Shown here: positions 15,076 through 34,476 of the stretch, piece after piece
Numbering within the stretch: position 1 is the stretch's first letter
How the letters are laid out: each line of letters begins with the position of its first letter
The notes under the pieces: model-generated
Database searches by the model: none
The model's input: only the letters and a program-made list of their open reading frames with translations
What the model was told of the DNA's origin: nothing
Position numbers and translations under genes: made by a program
Source of the DNA: Candidatus Krumholzibacteriota bacterium
Lineage (GTDB): Bacteria > Krumholzibacteriota > Krumholzibacteriia > Krumholzibacteriales > Krumholzibacteriaceae
Length of the DNA: 64,000 nucleotides
Assembly: GCA_030667985.1 (NCBI GenBank)
Contig: DAOUUU010000001.1
Span: 12,020-76,019 of the forward strand
Reading direction: 5' to 3'

Positions 15076-15525
15076 ATGGCACTCATAAGATGGACGCCGG
15101 GCAGAGAAGTCGTTGGTATTCAGGAGGAGATGAACAGGATGTTCGACAATTTCTTCGGTACGCCGCGGAGGGCCGAGAAGGATGACCGCATGCTCTACTG
15201 GACACCGCGCGTCAATGTCGAAGAGACCGACTACCAGTTCGAAGTCACGGCGGAGCTTCCAGGCCTCAACAAGGACGACGTCAAGATCGAGATCAAGGAC
15301 CACGCGCTGACCTTTACGGGCGAGAAGAAGACCGAGAAGGAGAACAAGGACCGGAACGTCCACCTCTACGAGCGTGCATACGGGAAATTCTGCAGAACCT
15401 TCACGCTGCCCGACAATGTCGATGTCGACAAGATCGAGGCCGAATTCAAAGACGGCATCCTTCAGATCGATATTCCAAAGACCGAAGAGGCGAAGCCCAG
15501 GCAAGTCGAAGTCCAGGTCAAGTAG
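15076..15525 (+). CDS. Small heat-shock protein, Hsp20/alpha-crystallin family
   Basis: 149 aa, alpha-crystallin domain (WTPRVNVEE..FEV..LPG...ERAYGKFCRTFTLP..V..I.A.F.DG.L.I.IPK). AGGAGGTG RBS upstream. Confidence 0.9.
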   Translation: MALIRWTPGREVVGIQEEMNRMFDNFFGTPRRAEKDDRMLYWTPRVNVEETDYQFEVTAELPGLNKDDVKIEIKDHALTFTGEKKTEKENKDRNVHLYERAYGKFCRTFTLPDNVDVDKIEAEFKDGILQIDIPKTEEAKPRQVEVQVK

Positions 15526-15553: not shown

Positions 15554-15585
15554 AAAAGGGGTCGGCTGAAAGCCGTCCCCTTTGC
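15554..15585. terminator. Bidirectional rho-independent terminator between hsp20 and the bactofilin gene
   Basis: An 11-bp stem AAGGGGTCGGC/GCCGTCCCCTT (one U-U mismatch) with loop TGAAA, followed by TTTGCTATTA. It lies between convergent genes. Confidence 0.6.
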
Positions 15586-15666: not shown

Positions 15667-16107
15667 CTATTTCTGGCCCGTCTCGACAGTCTCTTTCTTT
15701 TCCTCTTCCGCCCTCTGTGCGCCGAAAGACTTGAAGGACTCGTTCTTCTGGTCCGGGCTCATCTTGCAAGCCCCTTCAAAGAAGACACCCTCGTCGATTA
15801 CGAGACGGCTCGTCTTGATATCGCCCTGCAGACGCGATCCGGACTGGAGTTCAATCTTATCCTTGGCATTGATGTTGCCTATAACGTGACCGCCGACGAC
15901 CGCGTTCTTGACCGTTATCTCGGCCGTGACCTTTCCGTCCTTGCCGATGACCAAGGTATCGGGACAATTGATATTTCCCTCGAATTCTCCGTCTACTCTC
16001 AGGGTTCCATCCTTGACCTCGACAGTTCCTTTGACTTTGCATCCTTTGCCGATAATCGAGTTCATCTTGCCCTCCCCGGTCATATTTTCTCCTTCTTTGC
16101 TGAACAT
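15667..16107 (-). CDS. Bactofilin (DUF583/CcmA-like polymer-forming cytoskeletal protein)
   Basis: The bactofilin beta-helix repeat pattern IIGKGCKVKGTVEVKDGTLRVDGEFEGNI.....VIGKDGKV.A.I....VGGHVIGNI is present. Start is the ATG with GGGAGGAA 5 nt upstream; the ORF extends to 16158 with a GTG that would overlap the M23 stop. Confidence 0.8.
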   Translation of the reverse strand: MFSKEGENMTGEGKMNSIIGKGCKVKGTVEVKDGTLRVDGEFEGNINCPDTLVIGKDGKVTAEITVKNAVVGGHVIGNINAKDKIELQSGSRLQGDIKTSRLVIDEGVFFEGACKMSPDQKNESFKSFGAQRAEEEKKETVETGQK

Positions 16108-16154
16108 CGTTTCCTCCCTGCCTTTATCCTTCTTTTTTAGTATCATAACCCCCC

Positions 16155-16934
16155 TCACTGCAACAGATAATTTAACGGGTCCACATAATTATTATTCTGA
16201 ATGACCTCGAAATGAACGTGGGGCGCCGTGCTTTTGCCGGTATTGCCCGAATATCCGATCGTCTGCCCCCTTCCTATTCTCTCGCCCTTCATAACCGCAA
16301 GCCTGTCGTTGTGTGCGTAGAGTGTCTTTATGCCATATACGTGTTCGATCATCACGTAGTATCCGTACATGTCGTCCCACCCCGACTCGAGTACATATCC
16401 GGCGGCTGCGGCACGTACCGGCGTACCCCTTGGTACCGCAATATCTATGCCCGGATGATAATTCTCGTTTTCTGAACCGCTCGATACGCTGAACCCCCTC
16501 GTTATATAGCCCCTGACCGGCCAGAAGTTCGGCGTCGAGTACAACCCCTGTTCCTGATCCGCAGGGAATCCATTGGCGGCCGCACTCCTGTGCGCCATCT
16601 CGGGCTGCATGGCGAGGCTGTCCTCCTCGCTTACATCGATGCCGAGCATCCTTCTCACTTGAAGATTCATCGTGCGCATCGAGGCGAGGTTTCTCATCAG
16701 TTCCCCGACCTGCTCACTTCTTCTTGTGAGCTCAGTCACCTGTCTTTCCATCATCACCACATCGCGTGCCTTGAGCAAAAGTCTGCCATACGTAGCAACG
16801 AATATGGTCATCGCAACTACTCCGACGCAGGCGATTACAACGAGCGCATAAAAGAGCCTGTACGACACCCTGTACTGCTTTGTCCCCTGCTGGTCGCCGG
16901 GAACGACGATGACGGTGAATGTGCCTTTCTTCAT
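16155..16934 (-). CDS. M23-family metallopeptidase (LytM/EnvC-like) with N-terminal TM and coiled coil
   Basis: M23 motifs HPGIDIAVPRGTPV, a YVMIEH region and GNTGKSTAPHVHFEV. N-terminal membrane anchor plus a helical segment. Confidence 0.85.
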   Translation of the reverse strand: MKKGTFTVIVVPGDQQGTKQYRVSYRLFYALVVIACVGVVAMTIFVATYGRLLLKARDVVMMERQVTELTRRSEQVGELMRNLASMRTMNLQVRRMLGIDVSEEDSLAMQPEMAHRSAAANGFPADQEQGLYSTPNFWPVRGYITRGFSVSSGSENENYHPGIDIAVPRGTPVRAAAAGYVLESGWDDMYGYYVMIEHVYGIKTLYAHNDRLAVMKGERIGRGQTIGYSGNTGKSTAPHVHFEVIQNNNYVDPLNYLLQ

Positions 16935-16978
16935 CTCTCTCGGCCCCTGGATAATCCAACTCGCTCGAGAACCTCTTC

Positions 16979-17869
16979 CTACAGCGCGAGGTCGATTCCC
17001 ATCCTCTCGAGGATCCTCTCCAGATCCTCGTTCGAATAGAACTCTACAGAAACGACTCCGCCCTTGCGTCTTGATGCGACGTGAACCCTGGTTCCGAAAT
17101 GGGCCTCGAGAGTCTCCTCGATCGCTCTGACATGAGGATCGACCTTCCTGGTCCTCCCCCTCTTCTTGCGGCGCCTGCCGACCCCTCCCTCCCTCTCGAC
17201 TTCCCTCACTGTAATTCCTTCAATTACAACACGTTTCGCCCATCGTATCTTCTCGTCGTCGTCCTCGATCGCAAGTATCGCTCTCGCATGACCAGCTGTC
17301 AGCCCTCCCGAGTCTATCATGCCAATCACTATTTCGGGCAAGCTCAATAACCGCAATGCGTTAGCGATGGTACTCCTGTCTTTTCCAATCATGCGGGCTA
17401 TGTCGGCCGTCGAGAATCCGAACTCCTCCTTGAGCTCGAGATACCCCTTTGCCTCATCTATCGGATTGAGGTCTTCTCGCTGTAAATTTTCTAATAACGC
17501 CCATTTGAGAGATTCGGAATCATCTGCGTCTCTGACGATAGCAGGAATCGAGGTCTTACCCGCTATCCGAGCCGCCCTGAGCCTCCTCTCGCCCATTATG
17601 AGCTGATACCCATCCTCGTGCCTCCGCACGACAACGGGCTGCATCAGGCCGTGCTGCTCTATCGATGCGGCGAGCCTCTCCAACGGAGCCTTCTCGAAGC
17701 GGCTCCTGGGCTGTCGAGGATTCGGCTCGATCCGCTCGATATCGAGCTCCTTGACCCGTTCCGTCTCGGAGACGCTCTCCCTGAGATCGGTCGAGATCAG
17801 GGCTTCGAGACCCCTTCCGAGCACCTTCCTCTTCACATCAATCACCCCTTCCTGCCGCCTGTTTTCCAT
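16979..17869 (-). CDS. parB: Chromosome partitioning protein ParB
   Basis: ParB box [12 protein letters not shown] and an HTH region; overlaps the parA stop. Confidence 0.9.
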
Positions 17870-18653
17870 ACACTAGCTCAAAGTGCTCCTCTCCCGCGCC
17901 CTGCTTCTGAATGAATTCCTCCGCCAGCTTGAGATAGCTGCGGGAACCGGCGCTCTGGACATCGTAGAGAAGGACCGGGCGCCCGAAGCTCGGACACTCG
18001 CTGAGTCTCACATTCCTCGGTATTATCGTATCGTAGACCTTGTCTCCAAAGTAGGATATGGCCTCCTCGGCTACCCGTCTTGAGAGATTAAGGCGCTTGT
18101 CGAACATGGTCATCAGAACACCCTCTATCCTTAGATCCGGGTTGAGATGCTTCTGCACCATCCTGATCGTACTGAGAAGCTGGCTCAACCCCTCAAGCGC
18201 GTAGTATTCACACTGTATGGGTATGAGGACCGAATCGGCCGCCGTAAGAGTATTCAGCGTAATAAGCCCCAGGCTCGGCGGGGCATCGACTATGACAAAC
18301 TCGTACCGCCCCGCAATGTCCGAGAGGGCGTTCTTGAGCTTCATCTCCCTCGCGATCTGGGATACGAGCTCTATCTCCGCCCCTATAAGCCGCGGATGAG
18401 AGGGAATTATATCGACGAGGTCGGTCTCCCTGATTGTATCTTCCGCGCGCGCGGCACCTATGAGTACCTCGTATATCGTGTTCTCTTTCTCGGTTGCAAC
18501 AACACCAAGCCCGCTGCTCGCATTCGCCTGAGGATCAATGTCGACAAGGAGCACCTTCCGCTCGGCCGCCCCGAGGCTAGCGCTCAGATTTACAGCCGTC
18601 GTGGTCTTGCCCACGCCCCCCTTCTGATTCGCGATCGCGACTATTTTGCTCAT
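17838..18653 (-). CDS. parA: Chromosome partitioning ATPase ParA/Soj
   Basis: Deviant Walker A KGGVGKTT and the ParA family pattern; 271 aa. Confidence 0.9.
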
Positions 18654-19918: not shown

Positions 19919-20017
19919 TGGCTCCTCCTTGCAAGGGCGACTGTGGGGCTATTGGCATTATAGGTATGCCCCTTTTGTAACGCAACGAAAAAGAATTGAT
20001 TCTTTAAATAAAATCTG

Positions 20018-20117
20018 GTTTCACGTGAAACGGCGAGTATCTTGAGCTTGCCCGGGACGAATGATTGGGCCAATCTGTTATCTGAAATGCGCTTATAGAA
20101 TGTGTTCCACGTGAAAC
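20018..20117. promoter_or_regulatory. Two copies of a 14-bp palindromic operator-like motif GTTTCACGTGAAAC, 86 bp apart
   Basis: A perfect palindrome at 20018-20031 and a one-mismatch copy GTTCCACGTGAAAC at 20104-20117. Both lie upstream of the divergently oriented lipoprotein gene (start 19918) and downstream of the rsmG stop. Confidence 0.4.
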
Positions 20118-20121
20118 AGGA

Positions 20122-20844
20122 TCAAGGCCCGGTGCCCGTTCTGCTTTCTTTCGAAAACCAGAAGAGCCTGCCGCCTCCAGAGTGAGCGGGCTCGTTGTAT
20201 TCGAGCGTCAGCCTGTCCGCCCCCGGCTCCTCCAGCTCCTCTTTCCATGAGCCGGCCCCCTTGACGGTACAGTAGGAACCACCCACACGCAGAAGCACTT
20301 CCGCAATGGGCAGGAGCTTGCCGAATCTTCCAGCCGCCTTCGATATGACGAGATCGAACTTTTTTTTTGGCTCATACTCCGAAGCATCGGCCTGAACTAT
20401 CTCTAGGCCCTCGATCCCCAACCTCGATCTGATGTTTATCAGCAGGGTCGACATGCGTTCCCGGCGCTCAAATAGTGTGGTCTCGAGAGAGGGCCGGATG
20501 ATCTTCCAGACGAGCCCGGGGAAACCCGCACCCGATCCGATATCGGCGACACGGCGCCATTCCCGCTTCTCCGTCTCCCCCCTGCTTTCGCCGCTTGTCC
20601 CTTTCGCTCCACGCTCGCAGAGATCGGCAAAGCGTAGAAGACCGATCGAATCACCGAGCTGTCTGGTCAAATTGAGAGTCGCGTCAGCCCTGCCGACGAT
20701 ATGCATCGATTTGTTCCAGCGCAGCACCTCGAAGACGTATCGCTCTAGCTGAAGGACCACTTCCTGCGTATAGAATGCTGGTTCCGGAGAGTATATATTG
20801 TTTTTCAGCGCATCGCGTACGATGCCAGAGCTACGCCCTTGCAT
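20122..20844 (-). CDS. rsmG: 16S rRNA (guanine527-N7)-methyltransferase RsmG/GidB
   Basis: SAM-MTase motif [10 protein letters not shown] and RsmG family context (directly after mnmG). Start placed at the second ATG (AAGGGGGG 6 nt upstream); the ORF extends to 20868. It overlaps the mnmG 3' end. Confidence 0.85.
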
Positions 20845-22738
20845 CTTCCGCCCCCTTCGGCGCGCCATCGCGCCTCATCCGATCGAGAAATATCATTATA
20901 ATAGAGAGGTCCGATGTGCGGACTCCCGAGATCCTGGACGCCTGGCCCAGCGTCACGGGCCTGAAACGCTCCAGCTTTTCCCTGGCCTCGGTGCTCAACG
21001 CCTTGATATCGTACGAAAACCCCTCCGGGATCGGCATTCTGTCGAGGCGCAACAACCGGTCGGCCATTCGGCGCTGCCGTTTTATATACCCCTCGTACTT
21101 TACGCGTGTCTCGAGTGCCACCCTCTCCCCCCTGTCCAGCTCCAGCAGCGGTCCGGCCATCGCAGTCGCGATCATCTCTATCGTAATGCGGGGCCGCTGC
21201 AGCAATCGCGCCGCCGACTGAGGCTCCTGAACGGGCCTCTCGCCCCCCCCTTCGAGTATTTCGTTGCAGTCCGCCGCCCCTATCCGCTCCCGCCCAATCC
21301 GGACAGCCGCCCTGTTGATCCGGCGCCTGCGTTCTATCATTCGCTCCCATTGCCCTTTCGGCAGGAGACGGCACCGCACGGCATATTTTAATAGCCTTTC
21401 ATCCGCGTTGTCCTGCCTGAGCAGCAGCCTATGTTCCGCACTCGATGTGAACATCCGGTAGGGCTCTCCGATCTCCTTCGTTACGAGATCGTCTACCAGT
21501 ACTCCCGCATATCCTTCCGCCCTGCCGAGCAGTATGGGCTTTTCCCTTTTGATGCTCCGTCCCGCATTTATACCGGCGAGTATCCCCTGCGCGGCGGCCT
21601 CCTCATACCCCGACGTCCCGTTCACCTGGCCGGCGAAGTAGAGCCCTCCGATCCGCCGCGATTCTAGCGATGGGTAGATCTGCCGCGGAGGGAAGAAGTC
21701 GTACTCGATCGCGTACCCGTACCGGACAATACGGGCATCCTCGAGCCCCGGCACGGTCCGAATCATCCCCTCCTGTACATCCCGCGGCAGGCTGGTAGAA
21801 AGCCCGTTGATATATATCTCTTCAGATTCGATGCCCTCCGGCTCGAGAAATATCTGGTGCCTGTCACGGTCCGGGAAACGTACGACCTTGTCCTCGATCG
21901 AAGGACAGTACCTGGGCCCTACACCCGAGATCCTCCCCGTGTAGAGAGGGGATCTGTCCAGCCCGCTTCGAATGGTGTCATGCGTCGCCTGATTCGTATG
22001 CGTTATGTAGCACGATACCTGTTTTTGATCTATACGCTCCGTCCTGAAGGAGAAGGGCGAGGGATCATCGTCACCCGGCTGTTCTAAGCACCTGGAAAAA
22101 TCTACGCTGCTTCTTTCTACCCGCGCGGGCGTTCCAGTCTTGAGCCGTCCCCTCTCTATGCCGAGCGATGCGAGATCGTCACTCAGGCCGCAGGAGGGGG
22201 GCTCTCCCTCCCTGCCCCCGGGGAAGCTTTCCTCTCCTATGTGCATTAGACCGTTCGGGAATGTGCCGAGCGCCAGTATCACCCTCTGCGCCTCGATCCG
22301 GCCTCCACCTCTTACTATCACTCCAGACGCTCGATCCGAATCCACGCCTATCCCGACCACCTCGGCTTCGAGCACCTCGAGGAGCTCCTCGGACATTATG
22401 ACCCGCACCATGCGCTCGTGATACCGGGCCTTGTCCGCCTGCGCCCTCGGCGACCATACGGCGGGACCCTTTGCCCTGTTCAGCATGCGAAACTGGATAC
22501 CCGTTTCGTCTATATTGAGGGCCATCTCCCCGCCCAGGGCATCGACCTCCCTTACCAGCTGCCCCTTTGCAAGCCCGCCTATCGCCGGATTACAGGGCAT
22601 CCTCGCAATATCATCCTTGTTTATAGTGACCATAAGCGTCTCGAAGCCCATCCGGGCTGCCGCCAGCGCCGCCTCGCACCCTGCGTGCCCGCCCCCGACT
22701 ACAACGATCTCGTATCTTTCAATTTTATTCATAATCAT
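20831..22738 (-). CDS. mnmG: tRNA uridine 5-carboxymethylaminomethyl modification enzyme MnmG/GidA
   Basis: N-terminal FAD motif [13 protein letters not shown], 635 aa, characteristic GidA family sequence throughout. Confidence 0.95.
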
Positions 22739-24270: not shown

Positions 24271-24966
24271 CTACCTGTTATAGTGCCGGTCCCCACCCTG
24301 GTCACCCCGGCCGGTCGAGACACAGACTTTCCTCATATCCCCATTACCGACCGTGTAAGTAGTGACGCCGTCGACATCCGCCAATGCGAGGTGGACCATT
24401 CTTCTCTCGGCCGCCTGCATCGGCTCGAGCGGAATATCTCTCCCCGTCTTCTTTGCCCGCTCGGCCGCCTTGAGCGCCTTCTGCTTGAGGATCTCCCGCC
24501 TGTTCAACAGGTAACCGCCGATATCCAGCGTGAGCCTCTGGTAGCCTCCCATCCTCTTCGAGACGATCCTTCCTGTCAAGTGCTGGAGCGAGTTCAGCGT
24601 GTCGCCCTTTCTCCCGATCAGAAGCCCGTCTACTCCCGCCGTCTCTATATTTATATATGTGCTATCGTCCTCTTCCTTGGTGAAGAGTCTATAGTTGACA
24701 TCCAGGCAGTCCATAATCGTCCTGGCGACATCGTCGACCGCCTCCTCGATTCCCTTCCCTCCCGATTTGCGGGTCACCCTTATCTGGGCGTCTCTCGAAC
24801 CGAACAGGCTCAGCATGCCTTTCTGCCCGGCATCTATGATCTCGATCTCGACTTCTTCTATGCTCGTGCCAAGCTCTTTCAGGGCTTTCTCCAGGGCCTT
24901 CTCGACCGACTTCCCGGAAAAGAGAATACCGTCTCTCTTGATTATCTTTCCGCCTTTTTTCATCAT
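24271..24966 (-). CDS. jag: Jag/KhpB RNA-binding protein (KH + R3H domains)
   Basis: The C-terminal R3H region (LEPMQAAERRMVHLAL) and a KH-like domain are present, and it sits in the classic position after yidC. Start taken at MMKKGG (AGGAG 8 nt upstream); the ORF extends to 25011. Confidence 0.8.
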   Translation of the reverse strand: MMKKGGKIIKRDGILFSGKSVEKALEKALKELGTSIEEVEIEIIDAGQKGMLSLFGSRDAQIRVTRKSGGKGIEEAVDDVARTIMDCLDVNYRLFTKEEDDSTYINIETAGVDGLLIGRKGDTLNSLQHLTGRIVSKRMGGYQRLTLDIGGYLLNRREILKQKALKAAERAKKTGRDIPLEPMQAAERRMVHLALADVDGVTTYTVGNGDMRKVCVSTGRGDQGGDRHYNR

Positions 24967-25067
24967 CCCATATCTCCTGTTCTTCTTGATATGACCGTTG
25001 CTCGATATCATCCGATCTGTCTATGACGACTCTTGTTTCTTCCGCGCGCGCGGGCAGGCTTTCTTCA

Positions 25068-26837
25068 TCATGATGTCTCTTTTGCCGCCGCTTCACTCTC
25101 CTCCTCTTCAACCTCCCTGTGCACATAGTACTGCTGAACGATCGTCAGGATGTTGTTGACTATCCAGTATAGGACCAGCCCCGACGGCATCGCGTAGAAC
25201 ACGAAGGTCAGGACGATCGGCATCATCGTCGACATCATCTTGGTCTGGCCGGGAGGATTAGCCCCCCCTGTCGGCGACGCACCCAATTTCGTCTGAAGCA
25301 CCATCAGCCCCCCCATCAATATGGGCAGAAGATGGAACTCGTTTCCAACGAATGGAATCGAAGCGCCGAAACTGAACAGTACGTCGGGCGATGATAGATC
25401 GTTTATCCAGAACACAAACGGTGCGTTCCTGAGTTCGATCGTATTACGCAGGACGTTGAAGAGCGCGATGAAGACGGGCATCTGGAAAAGCAACGGCAGG
25501 CAACCGCCGAGCGGATTGACTCCCCCGTCCTTGTAGAGTTTCATCGTCGCCTTGTTCAGCTTTTCCTTATCATCCTTATGTTTTTCCTGGAGCTCCTTGA
25601 TCTTCGGCTGGAGCCTCTGCATATCCTTCATCGATTTGAAGCTCTTGTGCGTCAACCGATAGAAGACGACCTTGGTCAGAATCGACAGGATTATAATAAT
25701 CAGGCCGTAGTTCGGTACAAACCTATTTAGCATGAGCATTAATCTCAGCGCGAGAACGCTCACGATCCTCAGCTTGCCGAGGTCGATCGTCTTCTCAAGT
25801 CCGATCCCGTACGCCTTCAGCGTATTCATGTCGAGCGGTCCGAGGTAGCAGACGAAGGAATCCTCGACGACCCTCGGATCCCCCCTGAACGGATACCGCA
25901 GGGCGTACCCGACATAGTTCTCGCTTTTCTCTCCAAACAGCGACACCGAGCTCGAGCGGGGCTCCAGCGGAATCAGCGCGCTGAGAAAATATTTACTTCT
26001 CGTTCCCGCCCACGCGACCATTCCCTCGTGGGCTTTTTCCGTAGTCTTCGAAAACTTGCGCACCGGCTCCTGGTAAAATTCTTCGCCAACGGTGCTGAGT
26101 GATGCGAATTGCCTGATGTCCCTCTGCGCATCTTTTTCGTTCACCGCCATGCCGCCTTCCCATCCAATCGAATAGGCGCCTGTATCTTTCAGCCACCCAT
26201 CCCGGCGCACTTCGATGTCAAGGCCGACCTCGTACCCTTCGACACTGAACGTAAAACGCTTCTCTAGATATCCTCCCGCCTCATCCCGAATCAGAAAGGC
26301 CACCACCGCTTCCTGCCCCTCTTCCCGAACGACTATCTCCTCGCCTTGCTCCGCTGCTCTGCCGTTTACATAGGCTATATAGCCGGTACCGGCATGGCTG
26401 TCCCACTGCCCGTCACGCAGCGTCGAGATCCTGAAACCGCCGGAGCTCTCTTCCGGCATGAGCGCAACCGGAGTTCCATCCGGTCTCTCATACTCGATCA
26501 GCTCCACCTGCTTCATATCTCCACCGATGCTGCTCAGAAGGACGCGCATCGTACTCGTCAATACCGTTATCTCGGTGGCCCGAACCTCCGAAACGACCCC
26601 TGCCACTGTCCCGGTCGCTTCTTCGATCTTCTCGACCGAGGGGGGTTCTTTCGGCGCCTCGGCAATAGTGTCGGCTTCCGTCTCGCGCGCTTCGATTGTT
26701 GCAATTGAATCCGCGATAGCCAACTCTGCGGATCTCTTCCGGTCGATTTCCTTTTTCTTCGGCCCTACATAAAACATCTGGTAGCCGAGCAGTACAACGA
26801 AGGTCAACAAAACCGCAATAATGGTGCGTTTGTCCAT
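25068..26837 (-). CDS. yidC: Membrane protein insertase YidC
   Basis: Large periplasmic domain followed by a conserved TM core ([28 protein letters not shown]). 589 aa. Confidence 0.9.
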
Positions 26838-26895
26838 CTGGTTCCTTTTCCAATGCGAAGGTTGTTCTCTTCTTTATCTCTTGTCCAAATGGGGG

Positions 26896-27120
26896 TCAGC
26901 GAACAGGGTCGTAACCGCCACGCGAGAATGGGTGGCACCGGAGAAGCCGGCGCAAGGCCAGCCATGCTCCCTTGCGGGGGCCATACTCCTTAAGTGCCGC
27001 CTCGGCATAGGCGGAGCAGGTGGGCGTGAATCTACACACAGGTGGATGATAGGGGGAAATCGCATTCCTGTATATTCTGAGGGCCCCGAGGCCCAGGTGA
27101 TTCAAAGTCCGAGATATCAT
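26896..27120 (-). CDS. yidD: Membrane protein insertion efficiency factor YidD
   Basis: 74 aa, YidD/DUF37 signature LIRFYRxxISP..P..CRFxPTCSxYA. Confidence 0.85.
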
Positions 27121-27461
27121 CCGTTTGTTGATATGAGTCCTGCTCTTGCCATTGAGCCTTCGACGTCCTCGAATAGCTCGCCGTAATTCGTATCTTTAGG
27201 CTTGAAAGAGGCGATGAATACTACCCAGATGTTGTCTTCGGTGATCCGCTCCCGCAGCTGCCTGAATATCTCGCGCATCAACCTCTTCGCCCTGTTTCGC
27301 TGGTTCGCCTTTCCTATCTTCCTGCTTGCAACGAACCCCGGAAGAACCCCTTCGGACCCTTCCCTTAGATAATAAATGACGACTTTCTTCCCGACTTCCT
27401 TTTTACCCCCTCGGTACACAGCGCGAAACTGTCTATCTTTTGTAAGCCCCTTTGATGCCAT
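27117..27461 (-). CDS. rnpA: RNase P protein component RnpA
   Basis: 114 aa, basic, with an RNR motif region ([14 protein letters not shown]). It overlaps yidD by 4 nt and follows rpmH. Confidence 0.85.
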
Positions 27462-27483
27462 ATGGCACCATCTCTTTTCTTTT

Positions 27484-27618
27484 TTAGACCGCTAATCGCG
27501 CTCTTCCTTTGGCTCTCCTCCTTTTCAACACCAATCGTCCGTTCTTCGTGCTCATTCTCTTTCGAAATCCATGGGTCTTTTTTCTTCTTCCATTGTGCGG
27601 CTGATACGTTCTCTTCAT
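27484..27618 (-). CDS. rpmH: 50S ribosomal protein L34
   Basis: Not in the ORF track (under 60 aa). Manual minus-strand translation gives [44 protein letters not shown] (44 aa). Confidence 0.85.
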
Positions 27619-28165
27619 CTCAATATCTCCTATTTTTGATATTTCACAATGAGTTCCGTTCCCATATCTTACATGTATTAAAGTAATTCACGATAAAAAA
27701 GATCTTCTTCCTTGTCAAGACTTTTATGCCCTTCGCGCTTATCCCCTTATGCCTCCAAAGGTTGCCGGACCATTCCCTTCTTCACAAATCCGCGATTCTC
27801 CATTCCACTTGGTAGTTAAATATTCTGTCACGCGCTATCTTTATATATATCAACCTATTGCAAAATTTTTCCCCCGCCGTGTAAAATTCTCTTGATTAGG
27901 TTTTCCACGTGTGGTAGATTTCGCTCCGCGGGATGGGGGCAACTTCCCCCGTAAAGTGATATTTACAGCATTGTTCTCACATCTTATCCGCTCATCTTGC
28001 TAGAATGTGGAAAACGTTCTGAAGTTGCAGCGAATGGCCCTCCAAACCCGTTGTAAGCGCAAAAAATAGCAGGTTTTCCACAATTGTGGAAAATGGTTGG
28101 TTCGTCAAGGAATAATCAGCCTTTCGCGGGAACGGGTTCTTCCTTGCAGTCAGATATAGGAACCT
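27619..28165. other. oriC part 1: DnaA-box cluster in the rpmH-dnaA intergenic region
   Basis: Multiple near-consensus DnaA boxes are present. They include TTTTCCACG/TGTGGTAGA at 27901-27919, TTATCCGCT at 27984-27992, TGTGGAAAA at 28006-28014 and a perfect 20-bp palindrome TTTTCCACAATTGTGGAAAA at 28074-28093. There are AT-rich stretches at 27631-27700 and 27830-27900. Confidence 0.6.
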
Positions 28166-29542
28166 TTGGGTCATACTGGGCGGAACATAATGGTAACACA
28201 ACAGTTGGGGGAACTCTGGGACCGCGTCCTCGATAGGGCCGGCACGCTCGTTAACGCACAGAGCTTCAAGACCTGGTTCAAGCCCACGAAACTCGTGAAA
28301 TTCGAGGAGGGTCGCCTCATCGTGGAGGGGCCCAACCCGTTTTTCGTAGACTGGCTCTCCGAGCATCACCTCGAAAAGATCGAATTCGCCGCGCGCGAGA
28401 CCCTCGGCGAGGATGTTTCGGTTGAATTCGTCTCGTCCGGCACCCCCCAGCGCACAACATCTCCCGAAGACGGCGTGCGCAGATCGGTTCTCGTCAACAA
28501 GCAGGTGACTCTCCCCAATAAGGTTCACCTGAACGCCCGCTACACATTCGACGAATTCGTCGTCGGCGGCAACAGCCGCCTGGCGCATGCCGCGGCGCTA
28601 GCCGTCGCGGAGCAGCCGGCCCGTGCCTACAACCCCCTGTTTATCTATGGAGGCGTCGGCCTCGGCAAAACCCATCTTATCCAGGCCATCGGGCATCAGG
28701 TGCTCACGGAACACCCCGCGCTGCGCATCTCCTATGTATCCGCCGAGAGCTTCATGAACGAGCTGATCCATGCCATACGCAAGGGCGTGACGCTCGAGTT
28801 CAAGGATCGGTACCGCAACATCGACATTCTCATGATAGACGATATTCAGTTCCTCGCCGGCAAGGAGAGCACGCAGGAGGAGTTCTTTTTCACCTTCAAC
28901 GCACTACACGACGCGAACAAACAGATAGTCGTTACGAGCGACAGGCCCCCAAAGGAGATCCCGAAGCTCCAGGAGCGCCTCACGTCCCGGTTCGAGTGGG
29001 GGTTGATTACGGACATACAGCCGCCCGATCTCGAAACGAGGATCGCCATTCTCCGAAAGAAGGTCGAGAACGAGCGCATCGCCATCCCGGACGACGTCAT
29101 CGAACTTATAGCCGAGAATGTCAAGAGCAACATCCGCGAGCTAGAGGGCTCGTTGATCCGGATACTTGCCTGCTCATCCCTTGCCTGCCAAGAGATCAAC
29201 GTCAAAATGGCCCACAGCGTCCTCAGAGACATCATAAAGGGCTCCCCCAAGAAAACCCCCGATGTAAATACGATCCAGCGGGCTGTCTCGCAGCATTTCG
29301 ACATCCCTGTCGAGACCCTCAAGGCCAAGACGAGAATCAGCCGAGTTGTCCGTGCTCGCCAGGTCGCTATATATATCACGCGCGAGCTCACCGATTGCTC
29401 GCTTGTTCAAATTGGAAAATATTTCGGCGGGCGGGATCACAGTACCATTCTTCACGCGTGCAAGAAAATCGAACGCGAACTCGAGAACGACCCGGCTCTC
29501 GAGAGAAAACTGGAGGCTGTCCGGGAAGATCTCTCCGCCTAG
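28166..29542 (+). CDS. dnaA: Chromosomal replication initiator DnaA
   Basis: AAA+ Walker A GGVGLGKTHL, a sensor region, and the C-terminal DNA-binding domain (VAIYITRELTD..IGKYFGGRDHSTILHACKKIE). The ORF begins with TTG; an in-frame ATG lies 8 codons downstream. Confidence 0.95.
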   Translation: MGHTGRNIMVTQQLGELWDRVLDRAGTLVNAQSFKTWFKPTKLVKFEEGRLIVEGPNPFFVDWLSEHHLEKIEFAARETLGEDVSVEFVSSGTPQRTTSPEDGVRRSVLVNKQVTLPNKVHLNARYTFDEFVVGGNSRLAHAAALAVAEQPARAYNPLFIYGGVGLGKTHLIQAIGHQVLTEHPALRISYVSAESFMNELIHAIRKGVTLEFKDRYRNIDILMIDDIQFLAGKESTQEEFFFTFNALHDANKQIVVTSDRPPKEIPKLQERLTSRFEWGLITDIQPPDLETRIAILRKKVENERIAIPDDVIELIAENVKSNIRELEGSLIRILACSSLACQEINVKMAHSVLRDIIKGSPKKTPDVNTIQRAVSQHFDIPVETLKAKTRISRVVRARQVAIYITRELTDCSLVQIGKYFGGRDHSTILHACKKIERELENDPALERKLEAVREDLSA

Positions 29543-29910
29543 TGTATCGTTATTCACAGTTTCCACAGAGTGCCTGTTAAAATACTGTTTATTTCTGTGG
29601 ATATGTCCAGGGTGTGTTGACAAGAGAGGTTTCTTCAACATACAATCAACACAGCAAGCGTGCGCCTGGGGTGGCCGGCGATGCGCTTGCCGGAAGGTTA
29701 TCAACATATCGACACTACCTACTACTACTACTATTTTATTACTTAATATCTGTATTAGTAGTTTATATAACCATGCTCGATTTATTGTTTGTTTTGGTTT
29801 TTTATTTCACTTGAAGAAGCTCTTGGAATTATCCTATGATACAGGTTCGCGATAGATAAATATGTGGATTTGGTTGCGTCGGCGCGTAATGCCCTGCAGG
29901 AGGTAGCGGT
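29543..29910. other. oriC part 2: dnaA-dnaN spacer with DnaA boxes, trinucleotide run and AT-rich unwinding-element candidate
   Basis: DnaA boxes TTATTCACA (29550-29558), GTTTCCACA (29559-29567) and TGTGGATAT (29596-29604). A (TAC)5 run at 29716-29734 is followed by about 90 bp of more than 75% AT (29735-29830). Confidence 0.55.
29716..29734. repeat. Trinucleotide run TACcTACTACTACTACTAT in the dnaA-dnaN spacer (DnaA-trio-like)
   Basis: Read directly from the sequence; it sits between the DnaA boxes and the AT-rich block. Confidence 0.9.
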
Positions 29911-31017
29911 GTGAAGATAATAGTACAACTCGGTGAACTCAGCAAAAAGATGAACGCGATATCATCGGTCGTTCCGGGAAAGACAACAATGCCCATCCTG
30001 TCGACGGTACTAGTCGTCGCCGACAAGGACGGTATAACTTTCTCCGCCACAGATCTCGATATATCCGTTACTTCCAAAGTGAAGGGGAAGGCTGATGGGA
30101 AAGGCACATTAGCTGTGCCGGCAAAGAAACTGGCCGAGATCGTCAAATCACTATCGGGTGATTCAGTGACCATAGAGGCGAGTGGCGAGAAAATGACTCT
30201 TACTTGCGGCAAAAGCCGGTTTGTGCTCAACGGGAGAAGCGCGGAGGATTTTCCAAAGCTGCCGAAGCAGGAGAGCAAGACATCGTTCAGCATCGATCCG
30301 GAAACACTAGCAAAACTCATACGGAAAACGATATACGCCGTGTCTACGGATCTTACGCGGCCGGCGCTTTGCGGTGTTCTGTGGGAGATATCGAGAGCGG
30401 GTATATCAATGGTGTCTACCGACGGGCACAGGCTGTCGAAGGTGGACCTCGCTAGGGAATTTTCCGATGTCGAGAGTGTGCAGGTCATAATACCGCCAAA
30501 GGCACTGTCCACGCTCAAGGCATACGCCGAGGGCGAGAAGGAAGTAAGGGTGAGCATCGCCGAAAACAGCGTCTCGTTCGATATGGAGGACACGGCGATC
30601 TACTCGAGACTTCTCGAGGGCCCATTCCCGGCATATCAGAAGGTCATCCCTGCGGCGAACGAGAAAGAGCTTATCGTCGGACGGGAAGCGCTGGCGGAGG
30701 CCACAAAACGCGTCTCCATCCTGGCGGACACACTGACTCACCAGGTGGTCTTCTCGACGGGCAAGGATAAGCTCACTCTGCACGTGAATACGCAGGAGAT
30801 AGGAGAGGCCAAGGAAGAGGTGACGGCTAAGTTCACCGCAGACCCGATGGACATAGGTTACAACGCCAGCTATGTAATGGATGTCCTGAAGACGATAGAC
30901 GCAGACGAGATTTCACTCAAACTCGACAGGTCGGATAACGCGGGGCTGGTCGAGCCGGTCTCTGAGGCTGGCGAGCTCAAGCACCTGTGCATCTTGATGC
31001 CGCTACGTATCAGCTAG
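29911..31017 (+). CDS. dnaN: DNA polymerase III beta sliding clamp DnaN
   Basis: 368 aa three-domain clamp. GTG start with GGAGG 7 nt upstream. Confidence 0.95.
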   Translation: MKIIVQLGELSKKMNAISSVVPGKTTMPILSTVLVVADKDGITFSATDLDISVTSKVKGKADGKGTLAVPAKKLAEIVKSLSGDSVTIEASGEKMTLTCGKSRFVLNGRSAEDFPKLPKQESKTSFSIDPETLAKLIRKTIYAVSTDLTRPALCGVLWEISRAGISMVSTDGHRLSKVDLAREFSDVESVQVIIPPKALSTLKAYAEGEKEVRVSIAENSVSFDMEDTAIYSRLLEGPFPAYQKVIPAANEKELIVGREALAEATKRVSILADTLTHQVVFSTGKDKLTLHVNTQEIGEAKEEVTAKFTADPMDIGYNASYVMDVLKTIDADEISLKLDRSDNAGLVEPVSEAGELKHLCILMPLRIS

Positions 31018-31042
31018 GGGGAGAGGGGTGTGGTGACCGGGG

Positions 31043-32146
31043 TTGATCATTAAATCGCTCGATCTGGTTAATTTCCGTAACATCAAAGAAGCGACCCTTG
31101 CCTTTTCCGGGACATTCAATGTCATCCGGGGCAGGAACGCTCAGGGGAAGACGAACCTTCTTGAAGCCATTCACCTTTTTTCTCTTGGAAGATCCTTCAG
31201 GACCAGGAGACGCGAGGAGATGGTGAAGTTCGACGAGGAGTACCTCTTCGCGCGCCTCGCCTGCACGAGTGACGCAGGCGTCAGCTTCCGTATCGAGATA
31301 GGTCTCGAGAGGGGCGGGAGGATCAGCGTGTCGGTCAACGGCAAGAAACTCGCAGCGCTCTCCGAGATCATCGGAATAATGCCGACGGTGATCTTTATAC
31401 CGGAAGACGTTGCGCTCGCCACGGGGCCGCCCTCGGAACGAAGGACCTTTGTGGACTATACGGCGTCCCAGATATCACCCTCGTTCCTTCAAAACCTCAA
31501 AGAGTACAGGAAGGTGCTCGTTCAGAGAAACGCCGCCCTGAAGAGGGCGATGGAGAGCGGGAGCCAGCCGGAGGGCATCACGGCGTGGGACGAGATGATC
31601 GTGGAGTGCGGCGCGGCGATCATCGAGGGGCGGCAGGAGATGCTGTCCGAGATCGAGAGCCGGGCGTCGAGATTGATAGACGACATCATGACTGGCACCG
31701 GAGCGATCACGATGCAGTATTCATGCTCCGTCGATCTGAGCGGGAAGGAGACGAAAGAGGCTCTCCGCGAAGCGCTCCTGGGGACCAGGGATCAGGAGAA
31801 GAGAAGGGGATATACCCTGGTCGGGCCGCACTACGACGACATCAGCATCTTTCTTGATGACAGGGAACTCAAAAGGTATGGATCCCAGGGGAGGAAGCGG
31901 CTCGCGTCGATAATTCTGAAGCTCGCCCAGGCCTGGGCCATCATGGAGCGCAGGGCGGAAAGGCCGATTGTCCTTCTCGACGATATCTTTTCCGAGCTGG
32001 ACGACGAGACCGCGAGAAGGGTGAACAGCCTGCTGTCGGACAGGTACCAGAGCTTCATTACGACCCCCCGCACAGAGGATATTATCGATGTCGAGGCTGC
32101 CCGGTTTTTCGTCGAGGAGGGTGTTGTGGCCGTCGAGAAAGAATAA
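31043..32146 (+). CDS. recF: DNA replication and repair protein RecF
   Basis: Walker A GRNAQGKTNLLEAI, an ABC signature region and a Walker B LLLDDIFSELD. Confidence 0.9.
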   Translation: MIIKSLDLVNFRNIKEATLAFSGTFNVIRGRNAQGKTNLLEAIHLFSLGRSFRTRRREEMVKFDEEYLFARLACTSDAGVSFRIEIGLERGGRISVSVNGKKLAALSEIIGIMPTVIFIPEDVALATGPPSERRTFVDYTASQISPSFLQNLKEYRKVLVQRNAALKRAMESGSQPEGITAWDEMIVECGAAIIEGRQEMLSEIESRASRLIDDIMTGTGAITMQYSCSVDLSGKETKEALREALLGTRDQEKRRGYTLVGPHYDDISIFLDDRELKRYGSQGRKRLASIILKLAQAWAIMERRAERPIVLLDDIFSELDDETARRVNSLLSDRYQSFITTPRTEDIIDVEAARFFVEEGVVAVEKE

Positions 32147-32260
32147 CGGCCAATCGGGCCCAATCAGAGGTTGTAAGCGAGGAAGTTTTTATGTATTTTT
32201 ACGGAGTTTTCTAATAGAATCAGGTTCTGCGGGGTGCCGTATATGGGGTGTTGAAACGCT

Positions 32261-34476
<2,216 letters not shown>

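Follow-up and report, generated by a model that had tools for sequence, protein, structure and literature searches.

A parA-parB-M23 peptidase-bactofilin gene string near the replication origin of a Krumholzibacteriota bacterium and its putative LmdC-BacA-type wall-remodelling module

Why should genes for a peptidoglycan hydrolase and a bactofilin directly follow the chromosome segregation genes parA and parB, and does such an arrangement speak for a physical bond between the segregation machinery and the cell wall or for shared expression? The question is raised by a string of four genes on the minus strand (15667-18653) of a stretch of DNA of 64,000 nucleotides (nt) from a Candidatus Krumholzibacteriota bacterium (contig DAOUUU010000001.1); this whole stretch is called the window below. 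An earlier interpretation, made from the letters alone and referred to here as the sequence-only reading, proposed that a bactofilin scaffold positions ParAB and/or localises a cell-wall hydrolase near the origin. We found that the string belongs to an origin-proximal, operon-like unit, (PKD/beta-helix lipoprotein gene)-parA-parB-lmdC-like-bacA-like. Its last two genes probably encode a wall-remodelling module of the LmdC-BacA (Csd1-CcmA) type, and the link of this pair with parAB seems to be mainly one of co-expression.

The four-gene string and its conservation

All four open reading frames (ORFs) are present in the order parA-parB-M23-bactofilin and in the same orientation, and each of the encoded proteins lies far above the Pfam gathering thresholds (Table 1), which confirms the composition of the string as first read. 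ParA is 55-79% identical to the same-position orthologues of related loci. ParB, apart from its Pfam domains, matches the NCBIfam family TIGR00180 (parB_part, 9e-52, above cut-off) and carries the GERRLRAA motif in its translation. With a Walker ATPase, a three-domain ParB and parS sites near the origin, the chromosomal ParABS system is complete.

As for the layout, parA and parB overlap by 32 nt, and the M23 and bactofilin genes are either 47 nt apart or overlap by 4 nt, depending on whether ATG 16107 or an upstream GTG is taken as the start of the latter. A scan for sigma-70 promoters and terminators gave background-level counts only and no site between the four genes. The folding energy of the short spacer between parB and the M23 gene is like that of shuffled sequences (z = 0.17); a terminator or promoter at this point, which the sequence-only reading had named as something that would weaken the linkage, was found neither by the scan nor by folding. 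The scan missed a GC-rich hairpin behind the bactofilin gene, which contains an internal mismatch, and this element was checked by folding instead (centroid energy -18.4 kcal/mol, z = -2.7 versus shuffles). Since no terminator or promoter was found between the genes and a hairpin closes the string, it probably reads as a single transcription unit, from the PKD/beta-helix gene to the hairpin.

Table 1. Features of the gene string and its surroundings (window positions)
Feature	Position	Strand	Evidence or remark
parA, Walker ATPase, 271 aa	17838-18653	-	Pfam AAA_31 5.4e-66, CbiA 8e-29
parB, CTPase-type centromere-binding protein, 296 aa	16979-17869	-	Pfam ParB_N 2e-30, HTH_ParB 1.7e-30, ParB_C 2e-9
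parB-M23 spacer, 44 nt	16935-16978	-	No promoter- or terminator-like signal
LmdC-type bitopic M23 endopeptidase (predicted), 259 aa	16155-16934	-	Pfam Peptidase_M23 7e-34, residues 159-253
Bactofilin, 146 aa from ATG 16107	15667-16107	-	Pfam Bactofilin 9e-29, profile 1-98 of 98
Intrinsic-terminator-like hairpin and U-run	15556-15583	-	GGGGACGGCUUUCAGCCGACCCC then UUUUCAAUU; ends the string before convergent hsp20
PKD and right-handed beta-helix (NosD-like) putative lipoprotein, 413 aa	18677-19918	-	Pfam Beta_helix 1e-16, NosD, PKD
Promoter-like TTGCGT-17-TATAAT	~19958-19994	-	Directly downstream of the two parS sites
parS sites (two)	20017-20032, 20103-20118		rsmG/PKD-gene spacer; TGTTCCACGTGAAACA (1 mismatch), GGTTTCACGTGAAACG (2 mismatches)
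dnaA	28166-29542	+	9.5 kb from the parAB region
hsp20 (Hsp20/alpha-crystallin)	15076-15525	+	Convergent with the bactofilin gene

The species representatives of GTDB were scanned with an alignment of the M23 protein, and the best 80 of at least 590 relatives were taken together with three loci from assembly look-ups; neighbours were called by tblastn with the window proteins, by ORF calling and with a bactofilin hidden Markov model. The 80 loci of the scan belong to Krumholzibacteriota, Gemmatimonadota (both Gemmatimonadales and Longimicrobiales) and Eisenbacteria, with one record under the name Latescibacteria and a few other bacteria; source records also give the name Candidatus Krumholzibacteriota to homologues of the M23 protein. 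We determined that 72 of the 74 loci with enough upstream sequence (~97%) have parAB directly before the M23 gene, and that 76 of the 79 that could be assessed have a bactofilin gene directly after it. Repeated in this number of related loci, the adjacency of the four genes is far beyond chance and the synteny is not unique to the window genome, which the sequence-only reading had regarded as a possible weak point. The median gaps amount to -4 nt (parA-parB), -1 nt (parB-M23) and 20 nt (M23-bactofilin). In Gemmatimonadota, overlaps of the ATGA or TGATG kind are common and suggest that the genes are translationally coupled. The whole series mnmG, rsmG, PKD/beta-helix gene, parA, parB, M23 gene, bactofilin gene and convergent hsp20 is present in two assemblies of Krumholzibacteriota, of which CP070727 is a contig of 4.1 Mb.

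The M23 and bactofilin genes also occur together without parAB, in L061 (Eisenbacteria) and L066, and this, together with their adjacency in nearly all loci, indicates that the pair acts as a module. In turn, three Gemmatimonadota loci (L023, L046 and L052) retain parAB-M23 without an adjacent bactofilin gene, which suggests that the latter is occasionally lost or relocated. The next gene in these three loci encodes, by the look of its sequence, a BMP-family lipoprotein or a Nif3-like protein.

Adjacent bactofilin and M23 genes have been listed for 226 species of many phyla (PMC10945521); Fibrobacter is in this list, which contains no Gemmatimonadota, Krumholzibacteriota or Longimicrobiales. 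A parAB-M23-bactofilin operon context was not described in the literature that we searched, and a search on bactofilin and Gemmatimonas gave no relevant paper.

The M23 protein and the bactofilin

The M23 protein consists of a cytoplasmic tail (residues 1-26), a transmembrane (TM) segment (about 27-49), a helix that reaches to about residue 96, a variable linker and the M23 domain (135-259). The HxxxD, catalytic H and HxH motifs are all intact and align with those of Csd1; H160, D164, H239 and H241 are the same in all of 82 orthologues of several phyla, and H208 in 99% of them. The M23 domain is probably a DD-endopeptidase. The top match among solved structures is Helicobacter pylori Csd1 (5j1l_A, E 3.6e-22), and in NCBIfam there was no equivalog, the matches to MepM, DipM and ShyA being domain-level and below threshold. 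Proteins of the LmdC clade, which includes Csd1 and Csd2, carry an active LytM domain behind an N-terminal TM segment and one or two coiled coils (PMC8416486). The predicted architecture of the M23 protein is that of this clade, a putative assignment made from the architecture and the Csd1 match.

An AlphaFold2 (AF2) model built with 36 close homologues leaves the M23 domain unmodelled, and its N-terminal secondary structure alone was used. Over residues 1-100, at a predicted local distance difference test (pLDDT) score of 64-93, the model contains the strands of a beta-hairpin (5-10/19-24) and a continuous helix (25-96), in which the TM segment is helical at pLDDT 82-93. The periplasmic coiled coil ahead of the M23 domain corresponds, in the model, to this long helix.

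The mean frequency of the top residue in the 82 orthologues is 0.45 for the cytoplasmic tail and 0.52 for residues 50-100, against 0.28 for the periplasmic linker. Krumholzibacteriota (TFSVIIVPHD..KTRTYRVPY) and Gemmatimonadota (VTIVVH.DG.L.SR.YR.P) share a tail pattern of hydrophobic strand, D-G, S-R and aromatic residue. Such conservation looks as would be expected for a cytoplasmic docking or binding peptide. A precedent comes from Hyphomonas neptunium, where LmdC is a DD-endopeptidase that binds BacA directly through its cytoplasmic N-terminus (aa 1-38), with a dissociation constant of ~15 uM (Pohl et al., 2024, eLife, PMC10945521).

The bactofilin is a full-length DUF583 (PF04519) core with short flanking tails, so the repeat profile on which the sequence-only reading depended is there in full. 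The mechanical ORF (15667-16158) begins at GTG 16158, yet the true start is most likely ATG 16107, because a strong Shine-Dalgarno sequence AGGGAGGAAACG lies just upstream of it and the orthologues begin with MFGKEG. A search of the PDB matched the protein with Caulobacter crescentus BacA (2n3d) and Thermus thermophilus bactofilin (6ria); NCBIfam held no equivalog for it. At the C-terminal polymerisation interface the FF is kept (GVFFEG, aligned with AFFQG of BacA). The N-terminus, MFSKEGEN (MFGKEGE in orthologues), agrees in M1, F2, S3 and K4 with the membrane-targeting consensus of bactofilins, MFSKKKK (PMC12448750), but has acidic or neutral residues in place of K5-K7. The C-terminal tail has about 30 residues (…SPDQKNESFKSFGAQRAEEEKKETVETGQK) and is devoid of the KKKVVVKK motif of BacP. 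A K/E-rich C-tail ending in W-x-K (AWAK, AWSK, AWTK, SWVK) is found in four of the Krumholzibacteriota-like bactofilins examined (L004, L005, L006 and L011); the window protein ends in …ETGQK, without W-x-K.

On every point that sequence can address, the last two genes fit an LmdC-BacA module. The bactofilin would polymerise, nucleotide-free, on the cytoplasmic side of the membrane, aided by its N-terminal MFSK peptide, and the beta-hairpin-like tail of the bitopic M23 protein would dock on the polymer. Docking would concentrate the periplasmic M23 domain, carried on its coiled-coil stalk, at defined sites of the envelope, where it could locally loosen peptidoglycan cross-links and so shape growth. 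The proposal of the sequence-only reading that the bactofilin localises a hydrolase agrees with the published biology of LmdC-BacA and Csd1-CcmA (PMC10945521, PMC5053510).

Origin-proximal setting of the string

The window covers a canonical replication-origin region. Its minus strand carries yidC, jag, mnmE, mnmG and rsmG, its plus strand dnaA, dnaN, recF and gyrB, and yidC, jag, mnmE and the plus-strand genes occupy 24271-34476; the GC skew switches sign at 28-30 kb, and oriC should be placed in the ~1-kb gap 5' of dnaA (~27.2-28.1 kb). As called, the end of mnmG and the start of rsmG overlap by 38 nt (20831-20868). The rsmG ORF has 248 aa, with a long N-terminal extension, and since its Pfam GidB match begins only at residue 105, the true start may lie further downstream than called.

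Between rsmG and parA, 23 nt upstream of the latter, we found the gene of the PKD/beta-helix protein, which has a lipobox-like IGAGC in its N-terminus and no NCBIfam equivalog. The transcription unit probably begins with this gene. It occupies the same place in 14 of the 16 Krumholzibacteriota-like loci (L001-L008, L010 and L012-L017 are named); in L011 no such gene was detected, and the sequence of L009 breaks off inside parA. In the Gemmatimonadota loci parA follows mnmG, and tblastn gave no match to the PKD/beta-helix gene.

Two parS matches, against 0.04 expected by chance, lie ~1.4 kb upstream of parA. The promoter-like element beside them could drive the PKD-parA-parB-M23-bactofilin unit, and ParB bound to parS could autoregulate its own operon. 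At the other end of the string, convergent hsp20 is also found by tblastn in 9 of the 16 Krumholzibacteriota-like loci (named: L001-L007 and L011), and the hairpin that it has in common with the bactofilin gene is a possible bidirectional terminator. No second ParA, bactofilin or M23 protein was found in the window.

The link with parAB and comparison with known systems

What links the pair with parAB is most likely co-transcription together with translational coupling, which would give cell-cycle- or origin-dosage-dependent co-expression, and a physical ParAB scaffold is probably not part of the link. The co-expression-only reading draws on the case of Myxococcus xanthus: bacM is co-transcribed immediately downstream of parAB, in the operon parA-parB-bacM-MXAN_7474 (PMC3899335), yet deletion of bacM leaves the localisation of ParA and ParB unchanged (PMC5703909, PMC3899335).

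Several points weigh against an LmdC-BacA-type pair tied to parAB by co-expression. Binding of the tail to the bactofilin in the Krumholzibacteriota lineage is a prediction by analogy with LmdC-BacA. The M23 protein is called LmdC-type from its architecture and the Csd1 match, its 259 aa compare with ~410-450 aa in alphaproteobacterial LmdC (judged by gene sizes), and its AF2 model is poor overall (pLDDT 50). The match of the bactofilin with the membrane-targeting consensus is partial, positions 5-7 being E-G-E and not K-rich. Finally, the tight coupling of parB with the M23 gene, seen in at least three phyla, exceeds mere neighbourhood and could reflect a functional tie with ParAB.

Such a tie is the substance of the alternative that survives best: the bactofilin scaffold would physically position ParA and/or ParB-parS in the manner of BacNOP-PadC, and maybe the M23 hydrolase as well, so that origin anchoring is coupled to wall remodelling. 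This would suit the co-inheritance of four translationally coupled genes in Krumholzibacteriota, Gemmatimonadota and one Eisenbacteria genome, and the position of the parS sites within the unit. Operons of parAB and bactofilin genes are also known in Myxococcus and in Bdellovibrio bacteriovorus, which co-transcribes parA3-parB-bd3904 (bactofilin) with a functional link only speculated (PMC7186360), and BacNOP organises ParABS in M. xanthus (Lin et al., 2017, PMC5703909). The sequence-only reading had invoked BacNOP as encoded next to parAB, which is wrong; it is bacM that adjoins parAB, while bacNOP lies with padC in a separate operon. As stated above, BacM is dispensable for the localisation of ParA and ParB. 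The PadC-like ParB/Srx adaptor that the sequence-only reading had suggested looking for is not found in the window, where a phmmer search with ParB over ORFs of at least 60 aa matched only parB; a second ParA was not found there either, and the C-tail of the bactofilin is short and without the BacP motif. The string is, moreover, separable on both sides, with M23-bactofilin standing without parAB and parAB-M23 without bactofilin in the deviating loci. We consider such a scaffold unlikely, and put a physical ParAB-bactofilin link, taken by itself, as rather unlikely; our analysis gathered no evidence in support of a bactofilin that positions ParAB.

More doubtful is the idea that in Krumholzibacteriota, Gemmatimonadota and their relatives ParABS and the bactofilin-M23 pair form one machine, in which a membrane-bound bactofilin patch captures ParB-parS (or ParA) and recruits the endopeptidase. 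If this were true, the origin would be anchored where the wall is being opened, whether for growth, budding or pole maturation, and the operon of four translationally coupled genes would record this coupling in the genome.

Similarly improbable is a role of the M23 protein apart from the bactofilin, as a general space-making or septal endopeptidase of the MepM/DipM/ShyA kind, with its neighbourhood an inherited order at a crowded origin and no coupling between the proteins. The sub-threshold NCBIfam matches would agree with this, as would the loss of the adjacent bactofilin in three loci and the LmdC orthologue of Agrobacterium tumefaciens, which has no phenotype or localisation (PMC8416486). 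However, a purely periplasmic enzyme would have no need for a cytoplasmic tail conserved across phyla. The M23-bactofilin adjacency, often with overlapping stop and start codons, and the direct tail-BacA binding of the homologous LmdC-BacA pair also argue for a partnership.

EnvC is a degenerate LytM amidase activator, and an EnvC-like, catalytically dead protein acting with FtsEX can be practically dismissed, despite the coiled coil ahead of the M23 domain and EnvC structures among the PDB matches (4bh5 and 6tpi, E ~1e-13), because the zinc and catalytic residues are all intact and invariant, the protein has a TM anchor and cytoplasmic tail and not a cleaved signal peptide, and the EnvC matches are nine orders of magnitude weaker than that of Csd1. 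The sequence-only description of the protein as EnvC/LytM-like is therefore to be narrowed: the LytM type, membrane anchor and coiled coil stand, while the likeness to EnvC gives way to one with LmdC. The same holds for its overall interpretation, which is borne out for the peptidoglycan hydrolase and not for the anchoring of ParAB.

The preferred reading, a wall-remodelling pair co-expressed with parAB, concerns an endopeptidase-bactofilin combination that is already a known cell-shape module and a recognised, widespread morphogenetic principle, cited in later literature as evolutionarily conserved; only its conserved attachment to parAB across several related phyla may be new. The locus extends this pairing to poorly studied phyla related to the Fibrobacteres-Chlorobi-Bacteroidetes (FCB) group, namely Krumholzibacteriota, Gemmatimonadota and Eisenbacteria. 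It also offers what appears to be a minimal LmdC-type enzyme of 259 aa, whose conserved tail of ~25 residues, a predicted beta-hairpin, is a candidate bactofilin-binding motif. The parAB-linked pair would be a concrete case in which to look for coordination between origin segregation and local wall remodelling beyond co-expression, and Gemmatimonas is cultivable. If the linkage is only transcriptional, the result amounts to a routine refinement of annotation, of which the corrected start of the bactofilin gene is a useful product.

Among known systems, the closest is LmdC-BacA, with lmdC-bacA as a putative operon in H. neptunium and Rhodospirillum rubrum (PMC10945521). Similar to this system, the window has an M23 gene followed immediately, on the same strand, by a bactofilin gene. 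The first encodes a bitopic protein with a short cytoplasmic N-terminus, a TM segment, a periplasmic coiled coil and an intact M23 domain, and the second a bactofilin with short tails and an MFSK-type N-terminus. In contrast to LmdC with its three coiled-coil regions, the shorter window protein has one helix. The window pair also differs in being the distal half of a parAB operon near oriC and in belonging to phyla outside the 226-species list, and its tail-bactofilin binding and DD-endopeptidase activity are predictions.

The csd1-csd2-ccmA locus of H. pylori resembles the window in that csd1, whose product is the top structure match and a member of the LmdC clade, adjoins the bactofilin gene ccmA. 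Yet the window string contains no inactive Csd2 paralogue, no attachment of the H. pylori locus to parAB is described, and the action of CcmA on Csd1 is believed to be indirect, via other membrane proteins.

The Myxococcus and Bdellovibrio operons share with the window a bactofilin gene downstream of chromosomal parAB near the origin. The Myxococcus operon also includes a gene for an uncharacterised envelope lipoprotein, as the window unit does in the PKD/beta-helix lipoprotein gene that precedes parA. Unlike in the window, no M23 gene is described there between parB and the bactofilin gene, and BacM acts in cell shape. In turn, the BacNOP-PadC system likewise brings bactofilins together with ParA and ParB, but its scaffold needs the PadC adaptor and the long C-tail of BacP, neither of which is present in the window.

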